A stretch of 64,000 nucleotides of DNA from a bacterium (GCA_030649205.1 JAUSGE010000014.1:28717-92716); one strand, 5' to 3'; counted from the stretch's first letter, positions 6,025 to 37,728 are shown. The notes: generated by a model not told the origin, from the sequence alone. Program-made: numbers and translations.

Positions 6025-6091
6025 GTGCCGCAGGCAAAAATCATCCTGGATGCGAGTAAATATTCAGGAATCAATCCGCAATCAAAACATT

Positions 6092-9764: not shown

Positions 9765-10915
9765 TGAATATTATAATTTTTTCCACCGCTTATCTGCCTT
9801 TTTGGGGCGGGGCTGAAATCGCGGTTAAAGAACTGACGGACAGGATCGGCGGCTGTGAATTTGACCTGATTACTGCCCGCTTGGACAGGCGCCTGCCGAA
9901 ATTTGAAAGATTGGGGCGGGTGAATGTTTATAGAGTTGGCCTGGGCTGGAGGCCGGACAAATTTTTACTGCCATTTTTAGGCTTATGGCAGGCGCTCCGC
10001 CTGGATAAATCGTGTCATTATCAGATTATTTTTTCTTTGATGGCCAGTCAGGCGTCAATCGCCGCGGCTTGGTTTAAAATGCTCTGTCCTGAAAAAAAAC
10101 TGCTGCTTAATCTGCAGGAAGGGGACGAGGAGGAGCATCTTAAAAGATACGCGCTGGGCAGTGATTGGCTGTACAATCGGCTGATCAAGCCTTGGCATTT
10201 GCTGGTTTTTAAAAAAGCGGATTTGGTGGTCGCCATCAGCGGCTATTTAAAACAGCGGGCGCAGGCGAGTGGCGTGAAATGTGAAATTGAGGTAGTACCG
10301 AACGGAGTGAACATGGCGAATTACGAATTACGAATTACGAATTACGAATTACGAAAAAAACTAGGGATCGGCGATAAGGAAAAAGTTGTTATTACCGTTT
10401 CCAGGCTGGTGAAAAAAAACGGGGTGGAGTATTTAATTGAAGCTATGCGCTATTTGCCGGAGAATGTTAAATTGATAATTATTGGAAGCGGTGAATTAGA
10501 ATTAAATCTAAAATCTAAAATCGCAAATCTAAAATTAGCTGGTCGGGTGCTAATGCTAGGTGAAATTGGAAATCAATCCATTCCTGAATACTTGTCCGCG
10601 GCCGATGTCTTCGTGCGGCCGTCTTTATCCGAGGGGCAGGGGATTTCTTTTTTGGAAGCCATGGCCGCGGGCGTGCCCATAATCGGCACGCCGGTCGGAG
10701 GCATTCCTGACTTTTTGCGCGATGGCGAGACCGGACTATTCTGTAAGGCAAACAATCCCCAAAGCATTGCTGAACAGGTGAAAGCATTATTGAACAATAA
10801 AGAGCTGGCCGATAAAATAACAGCCAGCGCGCTCCGGCTGGTGAAAGAGAAGTATGATTGGAACTTTATTTCCGAAAAATATGCAAAAATTTTCCATTGT
10901 TATTCCGGTATATAA
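9761..10915 (+). CDS. glycosyltransferase family 4
   Basis: E-x7-E region ([38 protein letters not shown]). Confidence 0.8.
10319..10353. repeat. heptanucleotide tandem repeat (AATTACG)x5 inside the GT4 CDS; 35 nt, so unit length is not a multiple of 3
   Basis: aattacg x5 read directly; encodes [12 protein letters not shown]. Confidence 0.9.
10504..10537. repeat. degenerate heptanucleotide tandem repeat (AAATCTA, ~5 units) inside the same GT4 CDS
   Basis: aaatcta aaatcta aaatcgc aaatcta aaatta; encodes [12 protein letters not shown]. Confidence 0.75.
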
Positions 10916-11579
10916 TGAAAAAAACACTATTTTAGAAATTTTAAAGCGAATTGAAGCGGTTGAATTGCCGCTGGCAAAAGAAATTATCTTTGTAGACGAC
11001 GGTTCGACCGATGGCACGCGGGAAATTTTAAAAAGTTTGCCGCCCGATAAATATAAAATATTTTATCAGCCGGAAAACCGGGGCAAGGGCGCGGCCGTGC
11101 GCCGGGGCTTTAGCCAAGCTACGGGTGATGTAATTATCATGCAGGACGCTGATTTAGAGTATGACCCCGAAGATTACCTTAAACTAATCAAACCAATAAT
11201 GGACGGCAAAGCCGACGTGGTCTACGGTTCCAGATTAACCGGCTCCGAGGCGCATCGGGTTTTATATTTTTGGCATTCAGCCGCCAATAAATTTTTAACC
11301 ACCCTGGCCAATATGTTCAGCGACCTGAATTTAAGCGATATGGAAACCGGCTATAAAGTTTTTTCGCGCGCCGCCTGGGAAAAAATTTCACCGCGTTTAA
11401 TTTCTAATCGCTTCGGCATTGAACCGGAGATTACCGTCTTGGTGGGCAAAAATAAATTGCGAGTTTACGAGGTCGGCATAACTTACGCCGGCCGGACTTA
11501 TGAAGAAGGAAAAAAAATCGGCTGGCGCGACGGCTTGGCCGCGCTTTGGCACATTATTAGATTTGGCGTCAGGAAATAG
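10881..11579 (+). CDS. GT2 polyprenol-phosphate glycosyltransferase (GtrB/DPM1-like)
   Basis: [13 protein letters not shown]...DDGSTDGT...QDADLEYDP are GT2 motifs with a DxD; ~232 aa like GtrB. Start taken at the internal ATG that begins the GT2 core (the ORF-track start at 10854 overlaps the upstream gene more). Confidence 0.8.
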   Translation: MQKFSIVIPVYNEKNTILEILKRIEAVELPLAKEIIFVDDGSTDGTREILKSLPPDKYKIFYQPENRGKGAAVRRGFSQATGDVIIMQDADLEYDPEDYLKLIKPIMDGKADVVYGSRLTGSEAHRVLYFWHSAANKFLTTLANMFSDLNLSDMETGYKVFSRAAWEKISPRLISNRFGIEPEITVLVGKNKLRVYEVGITYAGRTYEEGKKIGWRDGLAALWHIIRFGVRK

Positions 11580-11583
11580 AAAC

Positions 11584-13131
11584 ATGATGAATTTTTTACG
11601 AAAATATAAACAAATAATTAAATATTTTATCGCCGGCGGCGCGGCCGCGGCGGTTGATTTAGGTTTGTTGTATTTTCTGACCGATATTTTAGGAATTTGG
11701 TATTTAATTTCTACCAGTTTGGCTTTTGCCGCCGCGTTTTTCGTCAGTTTCTTTTTGCAGAAGTTTTGGACTTTTAGGGATCCCGATCAAACTGTAATAT
11801 ATAAGCAGCTGGCAACATACTTAGCCGTGGCTTTGGTCAATTTTACCCTAAACGCCGCCTTGATGTATATTCTGGTTGACGGCTTTAAGATTTGGTACCT
11901 GCTGGCGCAGTTTTTGGCAAGCGGTTTAATTGCCGGTGAAAGCTACTTTATTTATAAGTTTGTAATTTTTAATAAAAAGTCAGCCGGAGAAATAACTAAG
12001 CCAAGAGTGTTGATTGCCACCGGCATCTACCCGCCGGATATTGGAGGACCGGCGACTATGCTGGAAGCCTTGGCCAGTTCCTTATCTCGGCTGGGTTTTA
12101 GCGTGCAAACGATCACTTACGCGGAGCAAACTGCGCCGGGACAAGTTTATAGAATTTCCAGGGCGCAAAATAAAGCGTCCCGCTATGCTAAATATTTTTG
12201 GCGGTTGTGGCTTTTGTCGCGCCGGGCGGATATTCTGTATGTTACCGATACTTATAGCGTGGGCTATTTTGCTTATTTGATAAAAAAGCTAACCGGCAAA
12301 AAATATATAATTCGTTTTGCCGGCGATAGCGCTTGGGAGATGGCGGCGGGCGCCGGCTGGATTGAGGATTATATAACGGATTTTCAAAATATTAAATATG
12401 ACAGGCGCATAGAAAGATTAAAGGCGCGCCGAAAAAAAATATTGGTTAAGGCGGATAAAGTTATAGCGGTCAGCGATTTTATGGCCAAGCTGGCGAAAAT
12501 TATCGGTGTCAGAGAAGAAAAAATAACCGTAATTTACAATGCCGTGGATTTTTTCCCCGCTTCGCCAAAGCGCCAAATTCCGTTAAATCCGACCTTGGTT
12601 TATGCCGGCAGGTTAGTTCCTTGGAAGGGCGTGTCCATGCTGATTCGGGCAGTTCAAGAATTAAAAAACCATCGGCCAAATATAATTTTTGAAATAATAG
12701 GCGATGGACCAGAAGAAGTTAAACTTAAAAAATTGGCTTATAATTTCGGGCTGGCTGAAAATGTGATATTTCGCGGCCGGGTAAGAGAGGAAGAGAGTCA
12801 CGAAATTTTTGCCCGTTCTACCATTTTCGTTTTAAATACTAATTACGAAGGCTTGCCGCATTCGGTTTTAAACGCCATGCGCGCCGGTTTGCCCGTGATT
12901 GCGACGCCGATTGACGGTAACCTGGAAGTCGTCGAGGATCAAGTAAATGGATTGCTGGCGCCGTATAATAAACTGGCGGATTGGATAATTGCGATAAATA
13001 AATTGCTGAATAATCAGGGCCTGCAGCAAAAATTTTCTAAAAACGGTCTGGAAACCATAGCCAGATTCAAATGGAGCGAAGTGGTGGAAAAAACTTCGGC
13101 TTTAATCATCCGCAGTTTTGGTGAAAAATAA
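11584..13131 (+). CDS. fusion: N-terminal GtrA-like flippase-family membrane domain plus C-terminal GT4 glycosyltransferase
   Basis: N-terminus has 4 TM helices with a GtrA-like signature (KYFIAGGAAAAVDLGLLYFL, QKFWTFRD). C-terminus has GT4 E-x7-E (YEGLPHSVLNAMRAGLPVIATPIDGNLEVVEDQVNGLL). Start at MMNFLRKY, just after the upstream stop. Confidence 0.7.
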   Translation: MMNFLRKYKQIIKYFIAGGAAAAVDLGLLYFLTDILGIWYLISTSLAFAAAFFVSFFLQKFWTFRDPDQTVIYKQLATYLAVALVNFTLNAALMYILVDGFKIWYLLAQFLASGLIAGESYFIYKFVIFNKKSAGEITKPRVLIATGIYPPDIGGPATMLEALASSLSRLGFSVQTITYAEQTAPGQVYRISRAQNKASRYAKYFWRLWLLSRRADILYVTDTYSVGYFAYLIKKLTGKKYIIRFAGDSAWEMAAGAGWIEDYITDFQNIKYDRRIERLKARRKKILVKADKVIAVSDFMAKLAKIIGVREEKITVIYNAVDFFPASPKRQIPLNPTLVYAGRLVPWKGVSMLIRAVQELKNHRPNIIFEIIGDGPEEVKLKKLAYNFGLAENVIFRGRVREEESHEIFARSTIFVLNTNYEGLPHSVLNAMRAGLPVIATPIDGNLEVVEDQVNGLLAPYNKLADWIIAINKLLNNQGLQQKFSKNGLETIARFKWSEVVEKTSALIIRSFGEK

Positions 13132-13143
13132 ATTATTGGATTT

Positions 13144-14592
13144 ATGAATAATAGATTATTATTAGTCAACCCGCCGTTTAATGTCGCCAAAGACAATTAC
13201 GACAGCTCGGTATCGGTCGGTTTATTAAGCCTGGCCACCTATTTGGACTGGCGCGGCGTGCCGGTAAAACTTATTGATGGCGTCCGGCAGAAAGATTTTT
13301 TAAAAATTTTTCAACAGGCAGCCGCCGCGAGCGACTTAATTTGTTTTTCCGTTATGACCATGCAGATACCGCAAGCGCTGGAATTATCCGAGCTGGCAAA
13401 AGAGATTAATCCGCAAAGCAAAATTATCTGGGGCGGCGCTCATCCGACTTTTTTCCCGGAACAAACAGCCAGGCATAGCCTGATTGACGCGGTGGTAATA
13501 GGCGATGGCGAGTATGTTATTTTTGATTTGTTTAACGAGCCGGACTGGCAAAAAGTTAACGGCATCGCTTATAAAAAGGGCGGGGAAGTCGTAATTAATT
13601 CTCGGCAAAAGCCGCTTGATCCTAAAACCATGCCGCTGTTTAACTGGGAACTTGAGCCCAGAGAAATACTGGAAAATTTGAGTTTAATCCCGACGCTCAC
13701 TTCCCGCGGCTGTCCTCATCGCTGCGCTTTCTGCATCAACGCCATTCTAAAAAATAGCTGGCGCGCCAGAACCGTTGATCAGGTATTGGAAGATTTAAAG
13801 ATCATAAGCGGCAAGGATTATTTCGCGGGCAAGCCTTTAAGATTTTGGGACGAAAATTTTTTTGTTGACATTAGGCGGGCTAAAGCCATAGTTAATGGCA
13901 TGATTGAGCGCGGGCTTGAGCGGCCCTGGGAGACGACCGTGCGGGCTAATTATATCAGCGCGGCCATGGTTGACGATAATTTTATGGGAAAAATGAAGCA
14001 GTCAGGCTGTTATCTTTTATCGTTCGGCGCCGAATCCGGCTCGCAAATTGTTTTGGATAAAATTAAAAAAGACATAACGCCCGAGCAGATTATTTATGCC
14101 GCCAAGCAATGCCTAAAGCACAAGATTATTCCGCAGTTTTCTTTTATGGTGGGGCTTCCCGGAGAATTAAAGCAAGACATGAAATTAACCGTAAAATTGA
14201 TAGATAAATTGATTAAGTTAAGCGACCAGGTGCAGATTTTAGGCCCGCAGGCGTTTCGGCCTTACCCCGGGTCGGAGTTATACCTGGAATGCGTAGCTTC
14301 GGGCTGGAGCGCTCCCGAAACGCTTCCGGCCTGGAGCCATTTGGTAAAAAATCAGCTGAATTATTTGCAAGTGAAGAACTTTAACTGGGTTAAGCACAAG
14401 GATTTTGTTGATTCCATGGAAGCCTACGTGCGCTTCGGCGCGCATAGTATTAAAAGCGCCATGGGGTCGTCGGTTAAAGCGAGAAAGTTTATTAAATTAG
14501 CTTTTGTTTTAATCTGCCAGCTAAGATGGAAATTAAAATTTTTCGCCTGGCCGTTTGAATTCAAACTGGCGAAAAAATTTGTGACGAAATGA
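13144..14592 (+). CDS. B12-binding domain radical SAM protein (class B)
   Basis: N-terminal Rossmann-like B12-binding region (LLLVNPPF..., GGAHPTFFP) followed by the TSRGCPHRCAFC cluster (Cx3Cx2C). Confidence 0.85.
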   Translation: MNNRLLLVNPPFNVAKDNYDSSVSVGLLSLATYLDWRGVPVKLIDGVRQKDFLKIFQQAAAASDLICFSVMTMQIPQALELSELAKEINPQSKIIWGGAHPTFFPEQTARHSLIDAVVIGDGEYVIFDLFNEPDWQKVNGIAYKKGGEVVINSRQKPLDPKTMPLFNWELEPREILENLSLIPTLTSRGCPHRCAFCINAILKNSWRARTVDQVLEDLKIISGKDYFAGKPLRFWDENFFVDIRRAKAIVNGMIERGLERPWETTVRANYISAAMVDDNFMGKMKQSGCYLLSFGAESGSQIVLDKIKKDITPEQIIYAAKQCLKHKIIPQFSFMVGLPGELKQDMKLTVKLIDKLIKLSDQVQILGPQAFRPYPGSELYLECVASGWSAPETLPAWSHLVKNQLNYLQVKNFNWVKHKDFVDSMEAYVRFGAHSIKSAMGSSVKARKFIKLAFVLICQLRWKLKFFAWPFEFKLAKKFVTK

Positions 14593-16031
14593 ATAAAATA
14601 ATTTTGATTCATATCAACCATTCAGAAGACCATTCGGAAAAAATATTGCCGCTTGGCATTTTATCCGTGGGCAGCGCTTTAAAAAAGCATGGCTTCGGTG
14701 CTGAACTTATAAATATTAATGAAACGGAAATAGATCGGACCGTAGATTACGTGGCTGAACAAAATCCATTATACGCGGGTTTTTCCGTGATGACCGGACG
14801 GCAAACAATGCATAGCGCGAAAATGTCAAAAAAATTAAAAGAGCGCGCTAATATTAAAATAATGTGGGGCGGCATCCATCCGTCGCTTTTGCCCGAGCAA
14901 TGCTTGAGCGAAAGCTACATTGATTTTGTCATCTCCGGAGAAGGGGAGGAAACCGCCGTTGAATTTTCCCGCAAACTGCAATCTGGCGAGCCGTTGGCTG
15001 ATATTTTAGGCTTGGGCTATAAAAGCGGCGGCGCGGTTAAAATCAACCCGCCCCGCCCGATGATAAAAAATTTGGATGACTGGCCGCTTGATTTCAGTTT
15101 GCTTGATTTGGAGAAATACATCTTCAGATTGGATAAATTTAAGCGGGTAATCGCTTATAAAGCCAGCCGCGGCTGCCCCTTTAATTGCGCTTTTTGCTAT
15201 AATCGCGCTTTCAATCAAAGCCGCTGGCGTGCTTGGTCGATTGATCTGGTCGTCTCGGATATTGAATATTTAAAGAAAAATTATAAAATTGACGCTGTAA
15301 AATTTTACGATGATAATTTTTTTGTGGATAAAAATCGCGCTTTGGAAATTTTAAGGCGGATTGGCTTGCCGGCGCACCTGGAAGTAAGAATTGATATGAT
15401 TGACGATTCCATAGCCCGGGCGCTTAAAGAATGCCAAGTTTTTGATTTGCTAATCGGCATTGAATCGGGCAGCGACCGGCTGCTAAAATTAATTAATAAA
15501 AATTTTACGGTTGAACGATTGATTGCCGGAGTAAAAATATTGGCCAAATATGACGTGCCGGCCAGCTATTCGGTTATCGTGGGATTGCCGACCGAGACTA
15601 AAGAAGAATTTGAAGCTACGATTGATTTATTGTATAAAATTTATAAAATTCATCCGCGCGCCGCGGCTTTTTCTCTGGGCGCTTATATGCCGTATCCCGG
15701 GTCGCTAATGTACGACTTTGCCATTAATGAGGGCTTTAAGCCGCCGGAGAAAACCGAGAATTGGGGCAGAATCGACAGGTTTAGAAAAGACTTTTCCACG
15801 CCCTGGACGGATGGAGCGCGGGTCTGGCGCATTCGCGAATATTTTAAGCTGTTAAAGTTAAAATTAGGCCCGATGAATAAATGGTTTGAGCTTAGAATTA
15901 AACATAGATGGTTCGCCCTGCCGTTAGACATTTATTTAATAGAATATTTAGCCGGCGCGGCCATTGAAGAAAAAAGCCGGGCAGGTAAAATTATGAGAAA
16001 AATTTATAATTTAATGAAAAATAAATTATGA
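14589..16031 (+). CDS. B12-binding domain radical SAM protein (class B)
   Basis: GGIHPSLLP B12-domain motif; ASRGCPFNCAFCYN (Cx3Cx2C). Confidence 0.85.
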   Translation: MNKIILIHINHSEDHSEKILPLGILSVGSALKKHGFGAELININETEIDRTVDYVAEQNPLYAGFSVMTGRQTMHSAKMSKKLKERANIKIMWGGIHPSLLPEQCLSESYIDFVISGEGEETAVEFSRKLQSGEPLADILGLGYKSGGAVKINPPRPMIKNLDDWPLDFSLLDLEKYIFRLDKFKRVIAYKASRGCPFNCAFCYNRAFNQSRWRAWSIDLVVSDIEYLKKNYKIDAVKFYDDNFFVDKNRALEILRRIGLPAHLEVRIDMIDDSIARALKECQVFDLLIGIESGSDRLLKLINKNFTVERLIAGVKILAKYDVPASYSVIVGLPTETKEEFEATIDLLYKIYKIHPRAAAFSLGAYMPYPGSLMYDFAINEGFKPPEKTENWGRIDRFRKDFSTPWTDGARVWRIREYFKLLKLKLGPMNKWFELRIKHRWFALPLDIYLIEYLAGAAIEEKSRAGKIMRKIYNLMKNKL

Positions 16032-17146
16032 ATTTATTAGTTATAAATTTGGATAAAGCGATTTTTTCTAAAAATTCCGCTAGTCTTGAAAGGCTTAAGG
16101 AGTATAGCGAGCTGACGGATAAGATGTTTGTTATTGTTTGGACAAAAAATAAAGAGCAAATGATAGTTTATAATAATAAATTGTTTATTTATCCCACCAA
16201 CTCTTGCTGCCGGCTGTTCTATTATTTTGCTTCGCTTGGAATCGCCGGAAAAATATTGAAACATGAAAAAATTGATTTAATTTTTACCCAAGATCCTTTT
16301 GAAACCGGCTTGGCCGGCTGGCTGATCGCCAAAATTTATAAGATTAAATTACAACTGCAAATTCACACGGATATTTTTAGCCCTTATTTTGAGCTTGAAT
16401 CTTTAGCCAATAAATTAAGGGTTTTGCTGGGAAAATTTTTAATAAAAAGAGCTGACAGTTTCAGGGTGGTAAGCCGAAGAATAAAAGAATCTTTAGTTAA
16501 ATTAAGCGTACCGGCGGAAAAAATTTTTGTATTTCCGATTTTTACCGATTTTAAAAAAAATGCCGGCCAGCCAATAAGAAGCGATTTAAAAAGTAAATAT
16601 CCGCGCTTTAATTTTATAGTTTTAATGATATGCCGCCTAAGTCCGGAAAAAAATATTCCCCTGGCCATCAGCGCCATGGCTGACATCGTAAGGCTTCGTC
16701 CCGGCGCCGGCCTGGTAATCATCGGTTCCGGCCGAGAGAGCGAGGAAATAATTAAATTTGGAAAAAATAAATTAGGAGGCATGATGGTTTGGGAAAAATG
16801 GACCGATGATCCGGTTTCGTATTATAAAAGCGCCGATTTATTTTTACTGACTTCTAATTATGAAGGCTGGAGTTTGGCCGTAATTGAAGCCGCTAGTTTC
16901 GGCCTGCCGATTATTATGACTGATGTGGGCTGCGCCGGCGAAGCGATTAAAAACGGCGAAAGCGGCATGATAATACCGGTTGGCAATAAAGAAAAATTAG
17001 TTGAAGTCTTGTTAAAAATTATTGAAGATGAAAATTTAAGGAAAAAATTAGGAGCAAACGCTAAATTGGCGGTAAACCGGCTGCCGAACAAAGAGCAGAC
17101 ATTGAATTTATATAAAATTTCTTGGCAAAAAGCCGTTTTAAAATAA
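16028..17146 (+). CDS. glycosyltransferase family 4
   Basis: YEGWSLAVIEAASFGLPIIMTDVGCAGEAIKNGESGMI (E-x7-E). Confidence 0.8.
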   Translation: MNLLVINLDKAIFSKNSASLERLKEYSELTDKMFVIVWTKNKEQMIVYNNKLFIYPTNSCCRLFYYFASLGIAGKILKHEKIDLIFTQDPFETGLAGWLIAKIYKIKLQLQIHTDIFSPYFELESLANKLRVLLGKFLIKRADSFRVVSRRIKESLVKLSVPAEKIFVFPIFTDFKKNAGQPIRSDLKSKYPRFNFIVLMICRLSPEKNIPLAISAMADIVRLRPGAGLVIIGSGRESEEIIKFGKNKLGGMMVWEKWTDDPVSYYKSADLFLLTSNYEGWSLAVIEAASFGLPIIMTDVGCAGEAIKNGESGMIIPVGNKEKLVEVLLKIIEDENLRKKLGANAKLAVNRLPNKEQTLNLYKISWQKAVLK

Positions 17147-17178
17147 CTTTATAAATTAGCCGGATAAATTTTTATAGT

Positions 17179-19620: not shown

Positions 19621-19644
19621 TAAGCGTGCCGTAATTTTTATCCT

Positions 19645-21000
19645 ATGAAAATTGCTTTAGTCAGGCCAAACTACAAAACTCACTTGATTACCCCGCCGCT
19701 TGGCTTGGGCTATATTTCTTCGTATCTAAAAAGCAAAGGCTGGCGGGTAACAATTATTGACGGATTAAATTTAAATTTAAGCAATGATGAAATAGCTAAT
19801 CTCTGCCAAGATTGCGAGGTTGTGGGAATTACATGCCTTTCTGATTTTTATTTAGAGGCGGTTGATTTAAGTAAAAAACTTAAACAGGCCGGTAAAATTG
19901 TGATTTTAGGCGGAGTCCATCCAAGCGTTTTACCGGCCGAGAGCCAAAAAGAATCCGGCGCCGATTATATTGTGGTCGGAGAAGGGGAAGTAACCTTTGA
20001 AGAATTAATCCGGGCATTGAGCCTTGGCCAAAATCCTTATTCCATTGCCGGCGTCTTCAGTCTAAGCCGTCAAACCGAATTTAAACCAAGGGAATTAATT
20101 GTTGATTTGGATAGTTTGCCGTTTCCTGATTGGGGCCAGCTTGACCCCAGAAAATACCAAAAAGCTCCGCATGGCGCTTTGGTAAAAAATTTTCCGGTGG
20201 CGCCGATAGTTTCAACCAGAGGCTGCCCCTATAGCTGTAAATTTTGCGCCAGCCCGCGTTTTTGGGGCAAGCGATTGAGGTTTCGCTCTCCGGAGAATGT
20301 CATAGCTGAAATTGAGCTGCTGGTTAAAAATTTCGGCGTTAAAGAAATACATTTTGAAGACGATAATTTAACATTAAGGCGGGAACATGCCATGGCTATC
20401 TGCAATTTAATTATTGCCAGAGGCGTTAAAATTTCTTGGGCCACGCCTAATGGCATTAGAGCTGACAAAGTTGACGAAGAATTGCTGAGGCTGATGAAAA
20501 CAGCCGGTTGCTATTATGTTGTTTTCGGAATTGAAAGCGGCAACCAAAAAATATTGGAGAATATCAATAAAAAGGAAACTTTGGCTGATATAGAAAAAGC
20601 TGTAAAGATAGCCAATAAGTTAGGCATGATGACTCAGGGTTTTTTTATTTTAGGGCTTCCCGGAGAAACCGAAGAAACCATTAAAAATTCTATTGACTTT
20701 GCCAAGCGCATACCGCTGGACCGAGCGCAGTTCTTGATTTTAGATCTATTGCCTGGCTCGGCTCTATGGGAAGAACAAAAAAATAATTTTGTGGTGGATT
20801 ACAAAAAAGAAAGTTATCATGAGCCGACTTGGGTGCCGGATACGATATCGCCGGAAACTCTTAAAAAATGGCAGCCCAAAGCGTTTCGCTCTTTCTTTTT
20901 TCGCCCGGGTCCGCTATTCTCCCTGATTAAGTTTTTTCGCCTGTCGCAAATAAAATATATTATTAATCGATTAAAAGATTTTAAGATTTTCAATTCTTAA
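19645..21000 (+). CDS. B12-binding domain radical SAM protein (class B)
   Basis: GGVHPSVLP; [14 protein letters not shown] (Cx3Cx2C). Confidence 0.85.
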
Positions 21001-21004
21001 CTTT

Positions 21005-22531
21005 ATGCCTAAAACCGCGATCATCATCGGCGCCGGTCCGGCCGGCTTAACCGCCGCCTATGAACTTTTAACTAAAACCGACATTAAACCTATCATTTAT
21101 GAGAGTAGCGCCGATATCGGCGGTATTTCCAAAACGCTGAATTATAAAGGCAATAGAATTGATATCGGCGGACATAGATTCTTTTCCAAGTCAGACAGAA
21201 TCATAGAGTGGTGGCAGAATATTTTACCCCTGGAAGCCGTGCCGCCCAAGCCCGGGCCGGATCCGGAGCGGGAAGATAAGCTGATGCTCATGCGCAAACG
21301 CTTATCAAGAATATTCTTTTTGCGCAAATTTTTCGCTTATCCGGTCTCTTTAAGCCTTGAGACTTTGTCCAATTTAGGCATAGCCAGGGCGGTTAATTTT
21401 TTTTTAAGCTATATTAAAGTTCGCCTTATGCCGATCCGAGAGGAAAAGTCTCTTGAGGATTTTTTTGTTAATCGATTTGGCAAAGAGCTTTATGGCACTT
21501 TTTTTAAAGATTATACGGAAAAAGTCTGGGGCCTGCCCTGCAGTAAAATCAAGGCTGAATGGGGAGAGCAGAGAGTAAAAGGGCTGTCCATAGCCAAAAC
21601 AATTTATCACGCTTTTAAAAAGATGCTTATTAAAAGATCTCCTTTGGATCAAAAAAATATAGAAACCAGCCTGATTGAATATTTTTTATATCCTAAATTC
21701 GGACCCGGGCAGATGTGGGAAGAGGCGGCGAAGATTATAAAAGAAAAAGGCGGCGAAATACATTTGAATCATCATGTTGTCGGACTTGATTTGCAAAAAA
21801 ATGAAATAACCGAAGCGGAAATAAAAGTTTTAAATAGCAATGAGATAAAAGTTCAAAAAGCCGATTATTTTTTTTCCACCATGCCGATTAAGGAATTGAT
21901 TCCCGCGCTCGGAGAAAACGCGCCCGGCGGCGTAAAACGAGTCGCTCAAGGGTTAATGTACCGGGATTTTATTACTGTTGGCTTACTGCTTAAGAAACTA
22001 AAGATAAAAAATGATACAAAAATAAAGACCGTTAATGATTTCATTCCGGATAATTGGATTTATATTCAAGAAAGGGACGTAAAGGTGTGCCGGGTGCAAA
22101 TATTCAATAATTGGAGCCCTTATCTGGTTAAAGAAAAAGATAAGGTTTGGATAGGGCTTGAATATGTCTGTAGCTCGGAAGATGAAATATGGGGAAAAAC
22201 GGACAAAGAAGTTTCAGAGTTTGCCATCGGTGAATTATTGAAAATCGGCTTTATAGAAAAAGAAGATATTATTGATTGGGCGGTGATTAGAATGGAAAAA
22301 GTATATCCTACTTATTCCGGAGCTTACGAAGAGTTCGAGACGGTCAAAAATTTTTGCGACCGGATAGAAAATTTATTTTTGATTGGCAGAAACGGCATGC
22401 ACCGGTATAATAATCAAGACCATTCCATGCTGACGGCTATGGTCGCGGTTGAAAATATAATAAATAACCTTAAATCAAAGAAAAATATTTGGGAGGTCAA
22501 TATTGAAAAAAGCTACCATGAAAGCAAATAA
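21005..22531 (+). CDS. FAD/NAD(P)-binding oxidoreductase (amine-oxidase / UDP-galactopyranose-mutase-like superfamily)
   Basis: N-terminal dinucleotide-binding motif [17 protein letters not shown]; C-terminal [25 protein letters not shown] flavoprotein-type tail. Confidence 0.6.
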
Positions 22532-23594
22532 AAAAATCATTATTTTTTTGGGAGCTCTGATAATCGCCAACTTGGCGGCGGCCTATTTTTTCCTCGGGCT
22601 TGGGACGCCCCCGGGAGATGCTCCCAGTTATCATGATGCCATGGAGTTTCTCTTGGGCCAGGGCGAGTCAGGAGCAGTTGAAGCCATTGTTCTGACCAGA
22701 TTGTTAACTTCCCCGCTGATGCTTTATCTATCAATATTTTTTGGTTATTTTGTTAATAGTTTATATTCCGGGATGATGATAATGAATCTGATATTTTATT
22801 TTTTGATTATTAGTATTTTTTATTTTTTGGTTTATGAAATTTATGGACGAAAGAATGTCGCTCTTTTTAGCACGGTTTTAATAGCAACTAATTATTATTT
22901 AGTCAGTCCGGCCAACGCTTTTTTAGTTGATTTAAGCGGTTGGTTTTTCATGCTGGCCGCTTCTTGGTTCGCCGTTAGGTATTATAAAAGAAAAATTAAT
23001 AAAAATTATTATTTGGCCCTGCTCTTTTCCGTTATCGGAGTATTTTTTAAGGAATACGGGGCGCTTGGCTTGCTGACTTTATTTACCTTGATTTTTTTAT
23101 CGGATTTTTCCTTAAAAGAAAAAATAAAAAAAATTTTATTAGGCGGATTTATGTTTGGCGTTTTACCGCTGGCTTACCATATATTTTTCTATTTAAAATT
23201 CGGTTTTTCATATTTTTCCGTGTATGATTTAACTTATTATCAATACAATATTATAGAACCAAACCATAGCTTCGTTATTCTGATAAAAGTTCTGGGCTGG
23301 GTTTTTTCGTTTGGCTGGTTTTTATTTTTTTACGGCGCTTGGCGCGAATATCGCGATTTTGATAAAGTCAGGCTTAAATTTTTGATTTCACTTCTGCCTT
23401 TATCTTTATCTTTTTTGGCTTGGCCTAGTTTCGCTCAAAGAGTGGCTTTTGTTTTAGCTCCATTATTAGCGATTATTTCCGGCCGAGGCTTGGCTGACGC
23501 AAATAAATACTTAGCCGTTTTGCTGGTTATCGCTTATATTTTTTTTAATTATAATATTGGCCGTTTAATAGAAATTATTAATTTGCCATTATAA
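22503..23594 (+). CDS. polytopic integral membrane protein (putative GT-C-type glycosyltransferase or polymerase)
   Basis: ~10 hydrophobic segments over 363 aa; sits in the glycan operon. Confidence 0.45.
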
Positions 23595-23602
23595 TAGACA
23601 AC

Positions 23603-24295
23603 ATGAGATTATCCATAGTAATACCGGTTTTTAATGAAAAGAATACTATTCTGGAAATTTTAAAAAGAATTGAAGCGGTTGATTTAGGCGCGGAAAAAGA
23701 AATTATTATCGTTGATGATTGTTCTACGGATGGAACTCGGGAGTTATTAAAGCCGATAAAAGGAAAATACAAAATTTTTTTTCATGAAAAAAATTACGGC
23801 AAGGGGCGGGCCTTGCGGACTGGTTTGATTGAGGCGACTGGCGAGGCAATAGTCGTTCAGGATGCTGATTTAGAATATGATCCGGCTGATTTTGCCTTAA
23901 TGTTAAAAATAATGCGGGAGCAGAATGCTTTAGCGGTTTATGGTTCTCGGCGCTTGCATCATAATTATTTTGAAGGCCGTTATTCCGGGCATATTTTTGC
24001 TTTAGGCGGTATTTTTTTGACCTGGCTGACTAATCTTTTGTATAAGACCGGAATAACCGATGAACCGACCTGCTATAAAATGTTTAAAACCGGCTTGCTT
24101 AAAAGTTTAGATTTAAAGTGCGAGCGTTTTGAATTTTGTCCCGAGGTTACGGCTAAAATTGCCAAACGCGGAATAAAGATTATTGAAGTGCCGATAAATT
24201 ATTATCCGCGCCATAAGCGTGAAGGCAAAAAAATTAATTGGCAAGACGCGGTGGAGGCTGTCTGGACGTTATTAAAATACCGTTTTAAAAAATGA
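23603..24295 (+). CDS. GT2 polyprenol-phosphate glycosyltransferase (GtrB/DPM1-like), paralog of 10881..11579
   Basis: [43 protein letters not shown] is near-identical in its N-terminal ~50 aa to the gene at 10881. Confidence 0.8.
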   Translation: MRLSIVIPVFNEKNTILEILKRIEAVDLGAEKEIIIVDDCSTDGTRELLKPIKGKYKIFFHEKNYGKGRALRTGLIEATGEAIVVQDADLEYDPADFALMLKIMREQNALAVYGSRRLHHNYFEGRYSGHIFALGGIFLTWLTNLLYKTGITDEPTCYKMFKTGLLKSLDLKCERFEFCPEVTAKIAKRGIKIIEVPINYYPRHKREGKKINWQDAVEAVWTLLKYRFKK

Positions 24296-24299
24296 AAAA

Positions 24300-25703
24300 A
24301 TGAGTAAAATTTTATTAATCAATCCGCCCTGGATAATTGGCGAAGATAAAAATTTATGGAAAGGCGTGGCCAGCTGCTGGCCAAGCCTAGGCTTGGCTTA
24401 TATCGCCGCAGTGCTTGAGAAAGCCGGACATAAAGTATTGTATCTGGATTGTTCGGCCGAACAGTACACGGTTAAGGAGTCGGCGCAAGCGCTTGAAAAA
24501 TATGATAAAAATTTGGATTTTGTTCTTTTGACCGCCACCACGCCTTTAATTAATAACGCGTTAGCGATTGCGGCCGCCGCTAAAAATATTTTTTCTCTGG
24601 CAAAAATTGTTTTAGGCGGAGTGCATCCCTCAATCCTGCCCGACGAAGTTATGGCGTGCGGCAGCGTTGATTTTGTAGTTATTGATGAGGGTGAAATTAC
24701 CATGAAGGAATTGGCCGGAGGAAAAAGTCCGGCTGAAATTTTAGGTTTATGCTATAAAGAAAACGGACTGATAATAAAAAACGCGCCCCGCCCCCTAATT
24801 CAGAACTTAGACGAAATTCCGCCGCCGGCTTATCACTTATTACCAATGGATAAATATTTTCCGGCCGTGGGGAGTTATAAAAGATTGCCCGTGATGATAA
24901 TGTTTGCCACCAGGGGTTGTCCGGGCCGCTGCACTTTTTGCTGCCGCACTTTCGGAGGCAGAGTTCGCCGCCGGTCAGCTCGTAATATTATTGAAGAAAT
25001 AAAGATTTTACAAAGAGATTACGGTATAAGAGAAGTGGCTTTTTACGATGATACTTTTACTTTGTTTAAAGATGTGGTAAAGGAATTTTGCGATATAATT
25101 GAGAGAGAAAAAATTGATCTTACCTGGTCCTGTTTTACCCGGGTTGATTATGCAAGCGAAGAGCTGTTTAAAATAATGAAGCGAGCCGGCTGCCATTTAA
25201 TTTTATTTGGCGTGGAATCCGCCGATGAGGAAATTTTAAAAAATATTAAAAAAAATATTTCTTTGCGGCAAGTTGAAAAAGTGGTAAAATTAGCGCGTCA
25301 GCTCGGCATAGAAACACGCGCTTCTTTTATGTTCGGCAATCAGGGCGAGACGGAAGAAACCATTAAAAAAACTATTGATTTCGCGATTAAGCTGGATCCG
25401 GACGAAGCGCAATTTAATATCGCTATGGCCTACCCGGGGACAGAACTTTTTAACTGGGCCAAAGAGCGGGGTTATATTAAAAGTTTTAACTGGAGCGATT
25501 ACAGTTATTCCAATATCGTTTTTGAAATGCCGAATTTAGACCGGGCCAAGCTGAAATATTATTACGAGCTGGCGCATCGCCGGTTCTATTTCCGGCCAAA
25601 ACTTATTTTACGGCGCTTGGGGCGTATTAGAACCTTTGATCAGCTATGGCAGGAGGTGAAAGGCGGATTATTGCTGCTCGGTTTTGTTTTTGGCAAAAAA
25701 TAA
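24300..25703 (+). CDS. B12-binding domain radical SAM protein (class B)
   Basis: GGVHPSILP; ATRGCPGRCTFCCR (Cx3Cx2C). Confidence 0.85.
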   Translation: MSKILLINPPWIIGEDKNLWKGVASCWPSLGLAYIAAVLEKAGHKVLYLDCSAEQYTVKESAQALEKYDKNLDFVLLTATTPLINNALAIAAAAKNIFSLAKIVLGGVHPSILPDEVMACGSVDFVVIDEGEITMKELAGGKSPAEILGLCYKENGLIIKNAPRPLIQNLDEIPPPAYHLLPMDKYFPAVGSYKRLPVMIMFATRGCPGRCTFCCRTFGGRVRRRSARNIIEEIKILQRDYGIREVAFYDDTFTLFKDVVKEFCDIIEREKIDLTWSCFTRVDYASEELFKIMKRAGCHLILFGVESADEEILKNIKKNISLRQVEKVVKLARQLGIETRASFMFGNQGETEETIKKTIDFAIKLDPDEAQFNIAMAYPGTELFNWAKERGYIKSFNWSDYSYSNIVFEMPNLDRAKLKYYYELAHRRFYFRPKLILRRLGRIRTFDQLWQEVKGGLLLLGFVFGKK

Positions 25704-25752
25704 AATATTAGTTATTTTAAGTTCCGTTTTGGGTTATAAAATAAATAATTAA

Positions 25753-27078
25753 ATGGAAAATTTTTTTAAAAAAAATAAAATATTGATTTTAATTTTAACC
25801 GGCGCCTTTTTAGCCAGCTTGGCATATTCTTTTTATTTTAGAATTGAGCTGGCGGTTGACGCCAGGGCTTATGACAATATTGCTAAAAATATTATAGCTG
25901 GCAACGGTTATCGCGAGGATTTGGGCGGTGATATCGCTCAAGACAATGCGATTACGCGGGTTGGCCCGCTATATGAATTTACGCTAGCCGGCAGCTATAA
26001 AATATTTGGGTACCATTATGAAGCCGTTTGGATTTTGCAGGCGCTGCTCCATGCTTTAACCGCCTGGTTATTGTATTTGACATGTTTGTTAATATTTTCA
26101 GCTAACGAAAAGAGAAAAACAATTGCTTTGCTCGCCGCCGGCATTTTTGCCTTTTATCCCGATCTCATAGAAATTTCAGCCATGCTTATGACTGAAACGT
26201 TGTATTTGTTTTTTGTTTGTCTTTTATTCTATGTGTTTTTCTATTATTTTTCCCGGCCGGATAAATGGCGTCTAGCGCTGGCGCTGGGTTTGATCTTCGG
26301 TTTGGCGGTTTTAGCCCGTCCACCGGTGCTTTTTTTAGCGCCGGTTATAATTTTCCTTTTTTGGAGTAAAAAAAAGTGGCTGCCATTAGCGCTGTGTTTG
26401 ATTGTCTTGTTTTTGGTTTTTGCGCCATGGACCATCAGAAATTATTTAACCTATGGAGAAATAATGCCCTTTGGCGCGGCTGGAAATTATAATTTTTGGA
26501 TTGGCAATTGGCACGGCGGCGATGGCGAGCAGAATCCTCAGCCATTTCATGCCGTTTTCGCGTCAACGCATGCGACTAAAGAAATTAATAGCGAGTCAAT
26601 GCGCCAGTTTAAGTTATTTTTACGCGAGCATCCGTTTGAGTTTTTAAAACTGACCGCGCTTCGCGTTATTAAATATTTCAGTATTGCGAGGCCGATGGGC
26701 TGGTGGTTTTATCAGGCTGGGATTGGGCAGCTGCTTTTTGTTTTTTCTTCGGCCCTGGCTTCAATTATTTTGTTTATTTTTAGCCTTGGCGGAGCGATTA
26801 AGGCTTTTATGCTTCGGGAAGAAAAATTGAATTATTTATTAGCTTTAACAATTTTTACGCCGCTGATTATTTTCGTTACCGTCGTGGAAACGCGCTATCG
26901 GTTCCAGATTTATCCGTTATTGGCAATTTTTGCCGGTTATTATATGGTTGATTTTTATAAAATGAAACATTTGGATAAATATTTTTGGCCGGCGGCGGTC
27001 GTTATATTAACTAACGGTTTTCTTGATTTAATATTAAGCTGGGATAAATTTAAAGAAAGGATATTCAAATTTTTTTAA
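25753..27078 (+). CDS. GT-C-fold membrane glycosyltransferase (ArnT/PMT/GT39-like, polyprenol-phosphate-sugar dependent)
   Basis: 441 aa with ~11 TM helices; N-terminal periplasmic-loop acidic residues (DARAYDNIAKNI); resembles PMT_2-type glycosyltransferases. Confidence 0.55.
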   Translation: MENFFKKNKILILILTGAFLASLAYSFYFRIELAVDARAYDNIAKNIIAGNGYREDLGGDIAQDNAITRVGPLYEFTLAGSYKIFGYHYEAVWILQALLHALTAWLLYLTCLLIFSANEKRKTIALLAAGIFAFYPDLIEISAMLMTETLYLFFVCLLFYVFFYYFSRPDKWRLALALGLIFGLAVLARPPVLFLAPVIIFLFWSKKKWLPLALCLIVLFLVFAPWTIRNYLTYGEIMPFGAAGNYNFWIGNWHGGDGEQNPQPFHAVFASTHATKEINSESMRQFKLFLREHPFEFLKLTALRVIKYFSIARPMGWWFYQAGIGQLLFVFSSALASIILFIFSLGGAIKAFMLREEKLNYLLALTIFTPLIIFVTVVETRYRFQIYPLLAIFAGYYMVDFYKMKHLDKYFWPAAVVILTNGFLDLILSWDKFKERIFKFF

Positions 27079-27079
27079 T

Positions 27080-28432
27080 ATGAAAGTAATATTATTGGAT
27101 ATTAAAGGCGCCTCGGCCAGAAAATGCGTTAATAAGGATTTATCCGGAGGCATGGGAACCGCCACCTGGGTCGGCGACTCATTTTTGGCCCGTGTTTTTG
27201 AGCGCGTCAAAAAAACAAACGTAGTTCTGCCGGAAATCACGATCGCTTATCTGGCCGCAATTTTTAAAAAATTCGGCTGGGAGGCCGAGGTGGCTGAGAT
27301 TAAAATAGGCTTGGAAAATTTTCGGAAAAAAGCGGATTTGGTTTTAGTGTTAAGTTCTATCGTTGATTGCGGCCATGAATTGGCTATCGTAGGCGAGCTT
27401 AAAGAAAAAGGCTATCATGTTGGAGTGTTCGGATCTTTCGCTACGGCTGTTCCGGAATTTTTTTCCAAGGCTGACTTTGTGATTAAAGGCGAGCCGGAAG
27501 CGGGCGCCTGGCAGATCGCTTCGCATAACTTATTGCCAAAAGGAATTATGGAAGTCGCGCCAATTGCCGACCTTAATTCTTTGCCGTATCCGGATTGGAG
27601 TTTTTTTCCGATTAAAAAGTATTCTTATTCTCCGGCTTTAAATAAAAAACCGGTCGTCGCCATGCTGGCTTCGCGGGGCTGTCCATATGGCTGTTCATTC
27701 TATTGCCCTTATTCAATAAATTCCGGCAGAACCTGGCGCGCGCGGAGCGTTGATAACGTGATTGGCGAGATGGAATATTTGAAGAAAAATTATGGCGTTA
27801 AGGCGGTTGATTTTAGAGACCCGGTTTTTACCTTAAACCGCGAGCGAACCGTGAAATTGGCTCAAGCCATGATAAAAAATAATTTAGGCATAATCTGGTC
27901 TTGCGAAACCAGAATTGATTGCTTGGATAAAGAACTTATTTTAATTATGAAACAAGCGGGTTTGCGGCATATCAATGCCGGCGTGGAGTCATTTAATGAA
28001 GAGGTGCTGAAAAAATCCAAGCGCCTGCCGATTCGCGCCGTTCACCAGGAAGAGATAATTTCTTTTTGCCATAAAAATGGTATTTCTGTCGCCGCTTTTT
28101 ATATTATCGGGCTTGAAGGCGACACTAAAGCCAGCGTCAAAGAGACTATTAAATATGCCAAAAAATTAAATACTCTAGTAGCTCAATTTACCATTAGCAC
28201 GCCCTATCCCGGAACGGAATTTTTTAATCAAGCTAAAGCGCAGGGCAGGCTGCTAACGCAGGCTTGGGAGCAATATGATATTTATACTCCGGTCGTAGAG
28301 CATGAAAATTTAAGCTCGGCCGATCAACTGGAGTTAAAAGAAGAAGCTTTTATCGCCTATTATTTTCGACCGCGTTATTTGCTGACCCATATGCCTAAAT
28401 ATTTATTGCAAAAATTTTTATGGCCGTTTTAA
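27080..28432 (+). CDS. B12-binding-domain radical SAM paralog with non-canonical Cys cluster (Cx3Cx3C)
   Basis: ASRGCPYGCSFYCPYS; codons verified at ~27672-27710 (tgt cca tat ggc tgt tca ttc tat tgc). Rest of the core is conserved with the paralogs (RTWRARSVD). Confidence 0.75.
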   Translation: MKVILLDIKGASARKCVNKDLSGGMGTATWVGDSFLARVFERVKKTNVVLPEITIAYLAAIFKKFGWEAEVAEIKIGLENFRKKADLVLVLSSIVDCGHELAIVGELKEKGYHVGVFGSFATAVPEFFSKADFVIKGEPEAGAWQIASHNLLPKGIMEVAPIADLNSLPYPDWSFFPIKKYSYSPALNKKPVVAMLASRGCPYGCSFYCPYSINSGRTWRARSVDNVIGEMEYLKKNYGVKAVDFRDPVFTLNRERTVKLAQAMIKNNLGIIWSCETRIDCLDKELILIMKQAGLRHINAGVESFNEEVLKKSKRLPIRAVHQEEIISFCHKNGISVAAFYIIGLEGDTKASVKETIKYAKKLNTLVAQFTISTPYPGTEFFNQAKAQGRLLTQAWEQYDIYTPVVEHENLSSADQLELKEEAFIAYYFRPRYLLTHMPKYLLQKFLWPF

Positions 28433-29238
28433 TTACCGGCGCCAAAGGATTTATCGGTTCGCGCTTAGTATCTTTTTTAAAAGAGGCGGGTTTTGATTTG
28501 GTAAATTTTGCCGCTGATATTACTGATCGTCAAGCGGTTTTAAGCTGGTCAAGCGATAAGAAAATTGAGGCGGTTATTCATCTGGCCGCGATTATGGGCG
28601 GGCGCAATAAAAGTTTGTTTAAAAAGATAAATATTGACGGGACCGGAAACATAATTGAGCTGTGCAAAAAAATCAGAGCCGGCCGTTTAATTTTTATGTC
28701 AAGTTTAAGGGCGCTTTCGTCCGAGCCAGATGATCCTTATGTTAATTCCAAAAAAGAAGCGGAAAAATTAGTTATTGACTCCGGCCTGCCTTATGTAGTT
28801 TTGCGGCCAAGCATGATTTACGGCCCGGGCGATAAAAAAAATATTGGATTTTTGCTAAAAATCGCCAGAACTTTGCCGCTAGTTCCGGTTTTTAATTTTA
28901 GGCTGCAGCCTTTATTTGTTGACGATGTTGCCAGAGTTATTATGGCTTGTTTTAAGGCCGCGCCAAACCAGACAATCAATCTGGCTGGCCAAGAAACTAT
29001 CAGCTATGCCGATTTGCTGGAATTATTAAAAGTTAAAGGTTATAAAATAAGGAGGCTTAACGCGCCGCGGCTGTTTAATTTTTTACTGAAGATTTTTTCT
29101 TGCCTGCCTTTTTCGCCGCTGCCGTATTGGCAGGTCAAAACTCTGTTGGCGGATGAAATTTTTGCAGGCAGCCAATGGCCCGGGAAGTTCAACATAAAGT
29201 GGACTTCTCTGGAGGAGGGAATGGCAAAAGTGGTTTGA
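28420..29238 (+). CDS. NAD-dependent epimerase/dehydratase-family SDR (short, 272 aa)
   Basis: ITGAKGFIGSRL Rossmann motif; YVNSKKEAE (YxxxK). Confidence 0.7.
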   Translation: MAVLITGAKGFIGSRLVSFLKEAGFDLVNFAADITDRQAVLSWSSDKKIEAVIHLAAIMGGRNKSLFKKINIDGTGNIIELCKKIRAGRLIFMSSLRALSSEPDDPYVNSKKEAEKLVIDSGLPYVVLRPSMIYGPGDKKNIGFLLKIARTLPLVPVFNFRLQPLFVDDVARVIMACFKAAPNQTINLAGQETISYADLLELLKVKGYKIRRLNAPRLFNFLLKIFSCLPFSPLPYWQVKTLLADEIFAGSQWPGKFNIKWTSLEEGMAKVV

Positions 29239-37724: not shown

Positions 37725-37728
37725 TTAT

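Follow-up and report, generated by a model that had tools for sequence, protein, structure and literature searches.

Radical SAM genes conserved within a GT2/GT-C gene cassette of a large bacterial glycan-biosynthesis island: a candidate branch of extracytoplasmic glycosylation

The glycan island and its five-gene cassette

We have analysed a stretch of 64,000 nucleotides from a bacterial genome (GCA_030649205.1, JAUSGE010000014.1:28717-92716), called the window below and numbered from its first letter. Pfam and NCBIfam scans of every sizeable open reading frame (ORF) characterised it as a single very large glycan-biosynthesis island of more than 60 kb. The closest named relatives of its proteins are found in Patescibacteria (Portnoybacteria, Staskawiczbacteria and "Patescibacteria group"), and the source is most likely a bacterium of the candidate phyla radiation. 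From about 4.4 kb to 40.7 kb, about 33 genes are arranged on the plus strand with tiny gaps or overlaps, and the island picks up again past a NUDIX gene and a transposase-like ORF. At least nine glycosyltransferases of family 4 (GT4) and three short ones of family 2 (GT2) are encoded, together with several nucleoside diphosphate (NDP)-sugar dehydratases and epimerases, four DegT aminotransferases, an FdtA isomerase, a TylC3-type C-methyltransferase, an ABC exporter and a NeuB, CMP-sugar synthetase and 2-epimerase set. Seven radical S-adenosylmethionine (SAM) genes are present in the 64 kb, five of them (R1-R5) at 13144-28432 and two beyond (48972 and 54609). The main subject of this report is the segment 23603-29238, read as a five-gene functional unit composed of GT2b, R4, a polytopic glycosyltransferase of the GT-C fold, R5 and a short-chain dehydrogenase/reductase (SDR), the genes being identified at the level of family or fold.

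The cluster motif is intact in each of the five radical SAM genes at 13144, 14589, 19645, 24300 and 27080, all of which had been regarded as B12-dependent in a first-pass annotation of the window. For R1-R4 this has held, since they pass the Pfam cut-offs for PF02310 and PF04055 and carry CX3CX2C, cobalamin binding itself being a prediction; R5 (27080) has a B12-binding match of E=0.0085, under the Pfam cut-off, and CX3CX3C instead. None of these proteins, R1 included, passes any curated NCBIfam cut-off.

The first gene of the cassette, GT2b (23603-24295, +), is a predicted polyprenyl-phosphate-sugar synthase of 230 aa that, unlike GtrB, has no transmembrane (TM) helix. Its best solved relatives in the PDB are the DPMS 5MLZ of Pyrococcus (8.5e-16, over the whole catalytic domain), ArnC and the GtrB sll0501, and its sub-cut-off NCBIfam matches to AglJ, PpgS and a Dol-P-hexose transferase span most of those profiles. 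All three short GT2s of the window (GT2a, GT2b and GT2c, at 10881, 23603 and 34614) are 230-241 aa long, lack a TM segment and match Pfam Glycos_transf_2 at 1e-28 to 1e-38, which confirms the earlier GT2 calls. Their C-termini each form a basic, Trp-containing amphipathic helix, and R1, R3, R4 and R5 have hydrophobic, basic C-terminal tails, which suggest a membrane-interface location and are a weak hint that the radical SAM enzymes act at the lipid-linked stage.

R4 (24300-25703, +) is a class-B radical SAM protein (Pfam Radical_SAM 3.1e-31, B12-binding 1.9e-23). Its top partial NCBIfam matches are HpnJ (TIGR03471; 277.7 bits, cut-off 577.6) and BchE, its best solved relative is AprD4 (6FD2), and no methyltransferase is included among these best partial matches. 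More than 100 R4 orthologues with 58-85% identity are distributed across Patescibacteria, and relatives with 41-60% identity are found in at least five other lineages, as labelled.

The third gene (25753-27078, +) encodes a compact GT39/PMT-like protein of 441 aa without a soluble C-terminal domain, named "glycosyltransferase family 39 protein" by NCBI, which exceeds the Pfam cut-offs of both PMT_2 (3.1e-12; 47.4 bits, cut-off 26.1) and PMT (3.3e-10; 40.4 bits, cut-off 22.7). Since a PDB sequence search with it gave no match, the fold has been established by AlphaFold2 and Foldseek. The AlphaFold2 model, based on a 32-sequence alignment, has about 11 TM helices (pLDDT 88, pTM 0.90) and no soluble domain, and no MIR match was found in Pfam. 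All Foldseek matches with a probability of about 0.9 or more are GT-C folds or the GT-C-like subunit PIGU of glycosylphosphatidylinositol (GPI) transamidase, the matched GT-C structures including STT3/AglB/PglB, ArnT, Pmt1/2, AftB, ALG3/12 and PimE. With the N-terminus inside, the first loop, which follows TM1, carries the invariant Asp D36; the invariant D39 of a second compact GT-C at 22503 has the same location. The positive-inside rule and fold homology, from which the topology has been deduced, place both residues outside, where the active sites had been expected.

R5 (27080-28432, +) is an AprD4-like radical SAM protein with no recognisable B12 domain. By phmmer, its residues 161-407 are aligned with AprD4 6FD2 at 2e-37, the CX3CX3C motif is found in both R5 (CPYGCSFYC) and AprD4 (CPYPCRFYC), and the NCBIfam AprD4 profile (NF033070) gives 162.8 bits against a cut-off of 500. 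The SDR gene (28420-29238, +) begins within the last 13 nt of R5; its product is a short Epimerase/RmlD-like protein of 272 aa (Pfam Epimerase 8.5e-21) and the putative reductase partner of R5. No GtrA gene is present within 23603-29238 or its orthologous cassettes.

Conservation of the cassette

For a scan anchored on R4, one genome per species was taken and an alignment of R4 orthologues was used as the query, which yielded 79 loci whose ORFs, read in six frames, were labelled by similarity to the proteins of the window. In the 27 loci whose anchors have at least 54% identity, labelled as Patescibacteria, Woesearchaeota, Nanoarchaeota, other archaea and Elusimicrobia/Endomicrobiales, a short GT2 is found on the same strand within 300 bp of R4 in 24 and within 3 kb in all 27. 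The GT2 gene lies directly upstream of the R4 orthologue in 24 of the 27, and an overlap of 4 nt between the two is common in R4-anchored loci. A protein with at least seven TM segments is encoded within 3 kb of R4 in 22 of the 27; of the five loci without one, three lie on truncated contigs in which part of a GT-C can be seen. Two loci (L019 and L024) hold isolated three-gene cassettes with no other glycosyltransferases near.

More distant R4 relatives (41-50% identity) have kept GT2, a PMT_2-type GT-C or both, in rearranged order. A PMT_2 polytopic protein and a GT2 flank the radical SAM gene in Planctomycetota/Kiritimatiellales (L029, L030, L033 and L074); a PMT_2 polytopic neighbour is also found in Spirochaetia (L037, 1077 aa) and Elusimicrobiales (L045), and a GT-C-like ORF detected by phmmer follows the R4 relative in Omnitrophota (L043) and in an unclassified bacterial metagenome-assembled genome (MAG; L044). 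Cultivable organisms, such as Desulfocarbo indianensis SCBM (L051) and Planctomycetota isolates, also carry R4 relatives.

The reverse anchoring was done with seven orthologues of the GT-C 25753, picked regardless of radical SAM genes. A B12-radical SAM gene is immediately upstream in five of the seven, and a radical SAM gene is within five genes in all seven. The exact order GT2, B12-radical SAM, GT-C, radical SAM without B12 and SDR is repeated in three of them (L162, L164 and L167) and permuted in L165; L163 has GT2, B12-radical SAM and GT-C followed by a second GT2/GT-C pair, and in L161 and L166 the radical SAM gene is a few genes from the GT-C. Besides the window, at least eight loci have the R5-SDR pair (L005, L014, L016, L109, L162, L164, L165 and L167).

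The adjacency of radical SAM genes with GT2 and GT-C genes is thus conserved in homologous loci from either anchor (24/27 and 5/7). Among the three gene arrangements proposed in the first-pass annotation, the one at 23603-28432, GT2-radical SAM-GT-C-radical SAM, is the one that holds, as a GT2/GT-C unit with embedded radical SAM genes. In an island of more than 60 kb with 7 radical SAM genes, at least nine GT4s and many sugar-nucleotide enzymes, some chance adjacencies are to be expected, and unrelated glycan genes might simply have been packed together. For 23603-29238 this explanation is contradicted by the synteny counts and is extremely unlikely. The same order is found in different phyla and in archaea-labelled MAGs, in isolated cassettes and from either anchor, often with 4-nt gene overlaps, so that the synteny is far beyond chance packing in a glycan island.

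Another explanation, that the radical SAM substrate is not a sugar but polyprenol, a membrane lipid or the protein acceptor of the GT-C, with glycosylation linked indirectly, has some attraction because many class-B radical SAM enzymes modify isoprenoid lipids or peptides (HpnP/R, GDGT methylases, Mmp10 and PoyC; PMC13459092, PMC12931638) and because the GT-C 25753 belongs to the protein-O-mannosyltransferase family. It is nevertheless very unlikely, since the R5-SDR pair corresponds to a known system for the deoxygenation of sugars, the gene most closely linked is a sugar-loading GT2, and no recurrent precursor-peptide or lipid-synthesis genes are found in the cassettes.

Two further observations concern the GT2 and R4 genes of other organisms. 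The GT2-R4 pair, at 54-67% identity, is present in archaea-labelled MAGs and single-amplified genomes (L015, L018, L025 and L027), the labels being Woesearchaeota, Nanoarchaeota (the single-cell genome SCGC AAA011-G17) and "archaeon" with binning taken as given; these cassettes suggest an exchange between candidate phyla radiation (CPR) bacteria and DPANN archaea. In Desulfobaccales, Nealsonbacteria and a 560-kb metagenome contig, a DPMS-like GT2 fused to a class-I SAM methyltransferase adjoins R4-like radical SAM genes (L031 11454-12923, L038 1739-3181 and L161 3182-4597).

Other radical SAM genes and glycosyltransferases of the island

The block upstream of 17179 begins with GT2a (10881-11579, ORF from 10854, +), a short soluble GT2 of the DPMS/ArnC/AglJ type (Pfam Glycos_transf_2 9.5e-38) with 46% identity to GT2b; in NCBIfam, AglJ is matched in part and PpgS over most of its profile. 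The next gene (11584-13131, +) had been noted for its GtrA-like domain, which has been confirmed (Pfam GtrA_DPMS_TM 7.8e-22, residues 41-157). No other GtrA domain occurs in the window. This one, with four TM segments, is joined at the N-terminus to a GT4 (Glycos_transf_1 1.3e-40) in a previously unnoticed 515-aa fusion. R1 (13144-14592, +; class B, Pfam B12-binding 1.6e-17, Radical_SAM 1e-17, CPHRCAFC) is followed by R2 (14589-16031, +; class B, with Pfam B12-binding and Radical_SAM matches, CPFNCAFC), the start of which overlaps the end of R1 by 4 nt, and by a GT4 (16028-17146, +; Glycos_transf_1 1.1e-34), whose position downstream of R1/R2 is conserved.

A metagenome scan anchored on R1 gave 80 loci with 63-88% identity, of which 57 have enough flank, and the order in them is near-invariant: GT4, R1, GT4, GT4. 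A GT4 is directly upstream of R1 in 54 of the 57. The GtrA domain, counted from TM segments and domain ranges because jackhmmer with the GtrA segment missed known fused copies, is found in about 31 of the 57 (fused to GT4 in 20, a separate small ORF in about 11) and went undetected in about 23. GT2a, found in about 10 of the 80, is a facultative part of the block, and R2 follows R1 in roughly 13-20 of the 80; in other loci R2 adjoins a GT4 matching the C-terminal half of the protein at 17179. The earlier view of GT2-GtrA-radical SAM-radical SAM as a Gtr system has therefore been abandoned, since the block is not Gtr-like and its constant partner is GT4.

The gene at 17179-19620 (+) encodes an 813-aa protein with a GT-C-like membrane domain (about residues 1-458) and a GT4 domain (about 464-805; Glycos_transf_1 1.2e-20). 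The N-terminal half has 29% identity to the GT-C 25753 (E=1e-7) and a weak PMT_2 match (2.7e-4). Such a combination of a membrane GT-C with a Leloir GT4 is unusual; the GT4 domain is presumably cytoplasmic, as suggested by the basic stretch that follows the last TM segment. The intact fusion is confined to this organism and its Logan assembly (L001), and the two halves are separate genes in L005 (1784-4819) and L016 (14244-16737; adjacent, 10 bp apart). By domain-level phmmer, other loci usually carry just the GT4 half. The protein is a lineage-specific fusion of neighbouring genes, and an apparent conserved GT-C/radical SAM pairing at 17179/19645 has been overturned, because ORFs in other loci almost all match the GT4 half only.

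R3 (19645-21000, +; class B, Pfam Radical_SAM 1.5e-29, B12-binding 1e-18), with partial sub-cut-off NCBIfam matches to BchE, Sden_1168 and HpnJ, is followed by an FAD oxidoreductase of the PRK07208 family (21005-22531, +; NCBIfam NF005546 798.6 bits, cut-off 418; Pfam Amino_oxidase 1.8e-12) with an amine-oxidase/UDP-galactopyranose-mutase-like fold, its C-terminus being the mutase-like part. Next is the second compact GT-C (22518-23594, ORF from 22503, +; 358-363 aa), which hhalign aligns with the 25753 family (probability 84%, E=7.4e-6; D39 on D36). Its AlphaFold2 model (pLDDT 86, pTM 0.88) again gives, at a Foldseek probability of about 0.9 or more, exclusively GT-C folds or a GT-C-like GPI-transamidase subunit (ArnT, TMq 0.63). 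The recurrent neighbours of R3 are a GT4 as in the C-terminal half of 17179, the FAD protein and the small GT-C; R3, FAD protein and small GT-C recur together in one CPR locus (L130) and R3 with the FAD protein in another (L133). The block 19645-23594 may be a second GT-C unit containing a radical SAM gene, one without a GT2.

R1-R3 are fixed components of a glycan assembly line and are paired with Leloir GT4s; their probable role is the modification of sugars on lipid-linked intermediates that are assembled in the cytoplasm. A wider explanation is that the radical SAM enzymes in general, R4 and R5 included, modify a residue just added on a larger lipid-linked oligosaccharide or growing polymer and not a polyprenyl-P-monosaccharide. 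It fits the order GT4, R1, GT4, GT4 in about 54 of 57 loci and the GT4 neighbours of R2 and R3. A precedent would be MoeK5 of moenomycin biosynthesis, a B12-radical SAM enzyme to which the methylation of a lipid-linked saccharide has been ascribed. For the cassette, however, this explanation is distinctly unlikely, since the tightest partner of R4 is a DPMS-like GT2, not a GT4, and since the isolated three-gene cassettes have no other glycosyltransferases.

The third short GT2, GT2c (34614-35336), has no TM segment and no radical SAM neighbour in the window, contrary to the expectation that every module is partnered with one. The polytopic protein at 37669-39564 (631 aa, about 10 TM segments, a C-terminal domain of about 190 aa), between two DegT genes, had been listed from 37729 as a GT-C-like transferase; it has been removed from this list, as it has no Pfam or NCBIfam match and hhalign against the GT-C profile gives a probability of 0.8%. 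The other GT-C assignments stand: 25753, the N-terminal half of 17179, and 22503, previously called a possible one.

Several other features of the island have been recorded. Its upstream edge (741-2978) encodes a 745-aa protein with a Wzy_C (O-antigen ligase/polymerase-like) membrane domain and C-terminal TPR repeats. At 5981-6946 there is a truncated-looking dehydrogenase paralogue (321 aa) beside a full-length copy (4360-5754), and at 43814-45487 a UDP-glucose/GDP-mannose-dehydrogenase-like domain fused to a class-I methyltransferase (557 aa). The sole minus-strand gene within the long plus-strand run (40663-41916) encodes a classical TylC3-type NDP-sugar C-methyltransferase (Methyltransf_13/14), so that conventional nucleotide-sugar C-methylation coexists with radical SAM genes. 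At 45544-47801 the island is interrupted by a minus-strand NUDIX gene and a 431-aa HTH_28/HTH_29 transposase-like ORF; GC content climbs to 0.46 and GC skew flips sign here, and several overlapping antisense ORFs, 125-150 aa long, are unlikely to be real genes. The two radical SAM genes beyond (48972-50927, 651 aa; 54609-56042, 477 aa) also have B12-binding domains, the 651-aa protein having just 22-25% identity to the other radical SAM proteins of the window. An Rfam scan at gathering cut-offs detected no cobalamin or SAM riboswitch in the window, a tRNA scan of the window found none, and the Pfam and NCBIfam scans found no hpn (hopanoid) genes in it.

Proposed pathway and alternatives

We consider that, with a probability of about 0.5, the cassette at 23603-29238 encodes a branch of extracytoplasmic glycosylation that proceeds via a polyprenyl-phosphate sugar and has its own radical tailoring enzymes. 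In this pathway GT2b, soluble and probably at the membrane interface, would transfer a common hexose or N-acetylhexosamine from a nucleotide sugar to polyprenyl phosphate on the cytoplasmic face. R5 and the SDR could then act as AprD4/AprD3 do, by radical dehydration of a vicinal diol to a ketone and its reduction, with net deoxygenation. R4, B12-dependent and closest to HpnJ/BchE, would provide a second radical step, for which C-methylation, oxidation and rearrangement are all possible. The tailored lipid-linked sugar would be flipped, and the compact GT-C, via its external-loop Asp, would transfer it to a surface acceptor. We infer the action of the radical SAM enzymes on a sugar, the lipid-linked stage, the reaction types and the acceptor from gene context and related enzymes. 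That the lipid-linked monosaccharide is the radical SAM substrate is proposed only tentatively. The GT2-methyltransferase fusions beside R4-like radical SAM genes suggest that the GT2 product itself is tailored, and are a possible Rosetta-stone hint in this direction.

Several points weigh against this pathway. The lipid-linked sugar is assigned as substrate by synteny and analogy, and since no radical SAM protein here is above a curated cut-off, the reaction types are drawn from distant analogues. In L088 (about 12.9-15.4 kb), the gene immediately after a GT2b orthologue (404 bits) is a GT-C orthologue (556 bits), with no R4 between, so that the radical SAM gene is an optional add-on and not obligatory. 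L020 has no polytopic neighbour, and the cassette has no dedicated flippase, a Wzx-like gene being found between GT2 and the radical SAM gene in L021 only. Since many CPR loci come from related genomes, part of the synteny is shared ancestry. Finally, in Phycisphaerae/Planctomycetota, R4 relatives with 43-48% identity occur in the order hexapeptide acyltransferase, 240-aa GT2, radical SAM, DegT (L052, L057-L059, L065-L067 and L080), which resembles Arn-like tailoring of a nucleotide sugar upstream of GT2 and hints that the radical SAM product is a keto-sugar, subsequently aminated and acylated.

This last context bears on a different order of events, in which the radical SAM enzymes would tailor the nucleotide sugar before loading by GT2b, as in the Arn type, where a UDP-sugar is edited and passed to GT2 and then to GT-C. 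DegT proteins and hexapeptide acyltransferases are classes normally acting on NDP-keto-sugars, and the conserved synteny fits this order equally well. We regard it as unlikely all the same. The window is already rich in classical NDP-sugar tailoring enzymes, including the TylC3-type protein, and we know of no class-B radical SAM enzyme acting on a nucleotide sugar. The lipid-linked stage is favoured because the characterised relatives of R4 and R5 act on aglycone-attached sugars, HpnJ, as proposed, on hopanoid-linked glucosamine and AprD4 on paromamine (PMC13459092, PMC5461906).

Extending the lipid-linked pathway to the whole family, it is possible, though still rather doubtful, that R4 and its relatives, often together with an AprD4-like dehydratase/reductase pair, edit polyprenyl- or dolichyl-phosphate monosaccharides on the cytoplasmic face. 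Deoxy, branched or rearranged donors would then be installed on the cell surface by compact GT-Cs, and the cassette would be shared among CPR, DPANN and other anaerobic phyla, probably laterally, as an oxygen- and NDP-sugar-independent route. The cassette points to an undescribed, oxygen-independent tailoring of cell-surface sugars. If this is true, radical SAM chemistry joins epimerases, oxidoreductases and deformylases as a diversifier of lipid-linked sugar donors, a large and highly conserved orphan family of class-B radical SAM proteins obtains its first functional context, and AprD4-like enzymes obtain one outside antibiotic pathways.

Very reduced genomes are attributed to CPR organisms. 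In the present bacterium, more than 60 kb of a probably very small genome, including seven radical SAM genes, is given over to the glycans of the surface, at which CPR/DPANN episymbionts meet their host. With 3-5 genes, the cassette is a small, self-contained unit that is open to direct heterologous expression, and the GT2/GT-C pair of L088 without a radical SAM gene provides a natural comparison for the glycan chemistry.

Comparison with known systems

In a literature search with thin coverage of subscription journals, we found no paper in which GT2/GT-C pairs, GtrA, polyprenyl phosphate, O-antigen or glycosylation in the CPR had been connected with radical SAM enzymes of class B. The first-pass annotation had spoken of an undescribed route, one part of which falls away, since editing of a polyprenyl-P-sugar before GT-C transfer is known from ArnD in the ArnC-ArnD-ArnT system and from mycobacterial DprE1/E2; the use of radical SAM enzymes for it would be new. 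Like Gtr systems (GtrA/GtrB/GtrC-type), the cassette pairs a DPMS/GtrB-like GT2 with a polytopic transferase in a co-directional, tightly packed arrangement, and its transferase should use a polyprenyl-P-sugar on the outer face, with which the modelled GT-C fold and Asp topology are consistent. Unlike them, it has no stand-alone GtrA, the one GtrA domain of the window being fused to a GT4 in another block, its GT2 lacks the C-terminal TM helices of GtrB, and it contains two radical SAM enzymes and an SDR in addition.

In three-component systems for pentofuranoses, an auxiliary epimerase diversifies the lipid-linked donor (Kelly et al., 2024; PMC11127046), and the cassette has a synthase-like GT2 and a GT-C with candidate auxiliary enzymes encoded between them. 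The proposed pathway shares with the pentofuranose, Arn and DprE systems a lipid-linked monosaccharide donor made in the cytoplasm, optional auxiliary editing, flipping and use by a GT-C. The editors of those systems are epimerases, oxidoreductases and a deformylase, and the synthase may be dependent on phosphoribosyl pyrophosphate (PRPP), whereas the auxiliaries of the cassette are radical SAM enzymes, one of them B12-dependent by prediction, and no flippase is encoded.

HpnJ has been proposed to remodel the glucosamine that a glycosyltransferase attached to a hopanoid (PMC13459092). As in HpnI/HpnK/HpnJ, where a hexosamine is put on a lipid by a glycosyltransferase and a B12-type radical SAM enzyme is involved, the cassette combines these two activities at the family level, and HpnJ is the best-scoring curated family for R4. 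At 278 bits against a 578-bit cut-off, however, R4 is not HpnJ, and there are no hopanoid genes here. HpnJ-type ring contraction, considered as the likeliest chemistry of R4, has been set aside, since it would destroy the anomeric centre required of a GT-C donor; the chemistry of R4 is probably different.

AprD4 is a radical SAM diol dehydratase, and the NADPH reductase AprD3 completes the C3'-deoxygenation of paromamine in apramycin biosynthesis (PMC5461906). R5 resembles AprD4 in the CX3CX3C motif, the 2e-37 alignment, the lack of a real B12 domain and the SDR next to it, and dehydratase activity is predicted. It differs in its score (163 bits, cut-off 500) and in its setting, which is a cell-surface glycan cassette of uncultivated anaerobes and not an aminoglycoside cluster. 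Since R4 and R5 are below the curated HpnJ and AprD4 cut-offs, they are taken as new families with HpnJ and AprD4 as the nearest analogues. The GT-C 25753 is like GT39/PMT proteins in its membrane domain, which is over the PMT and PMT_2 cut-offs, and unlike them in having no luminal MIR domain.

Conceptually, the cassette belongs to the three-component class of extracytoplasmic glycosylation, together with the Gtr, Arn, mycobacterial decaprenyl-phosphate-arabinose (DPA) and pentofuranose systems. What would be new here is the use of radical SAM auxiliaries, one of them predicted to depend on cobalamin, together with the wide occurrence of the cassette among uncultivated anaerobic lineages, bacterial and archaeal.

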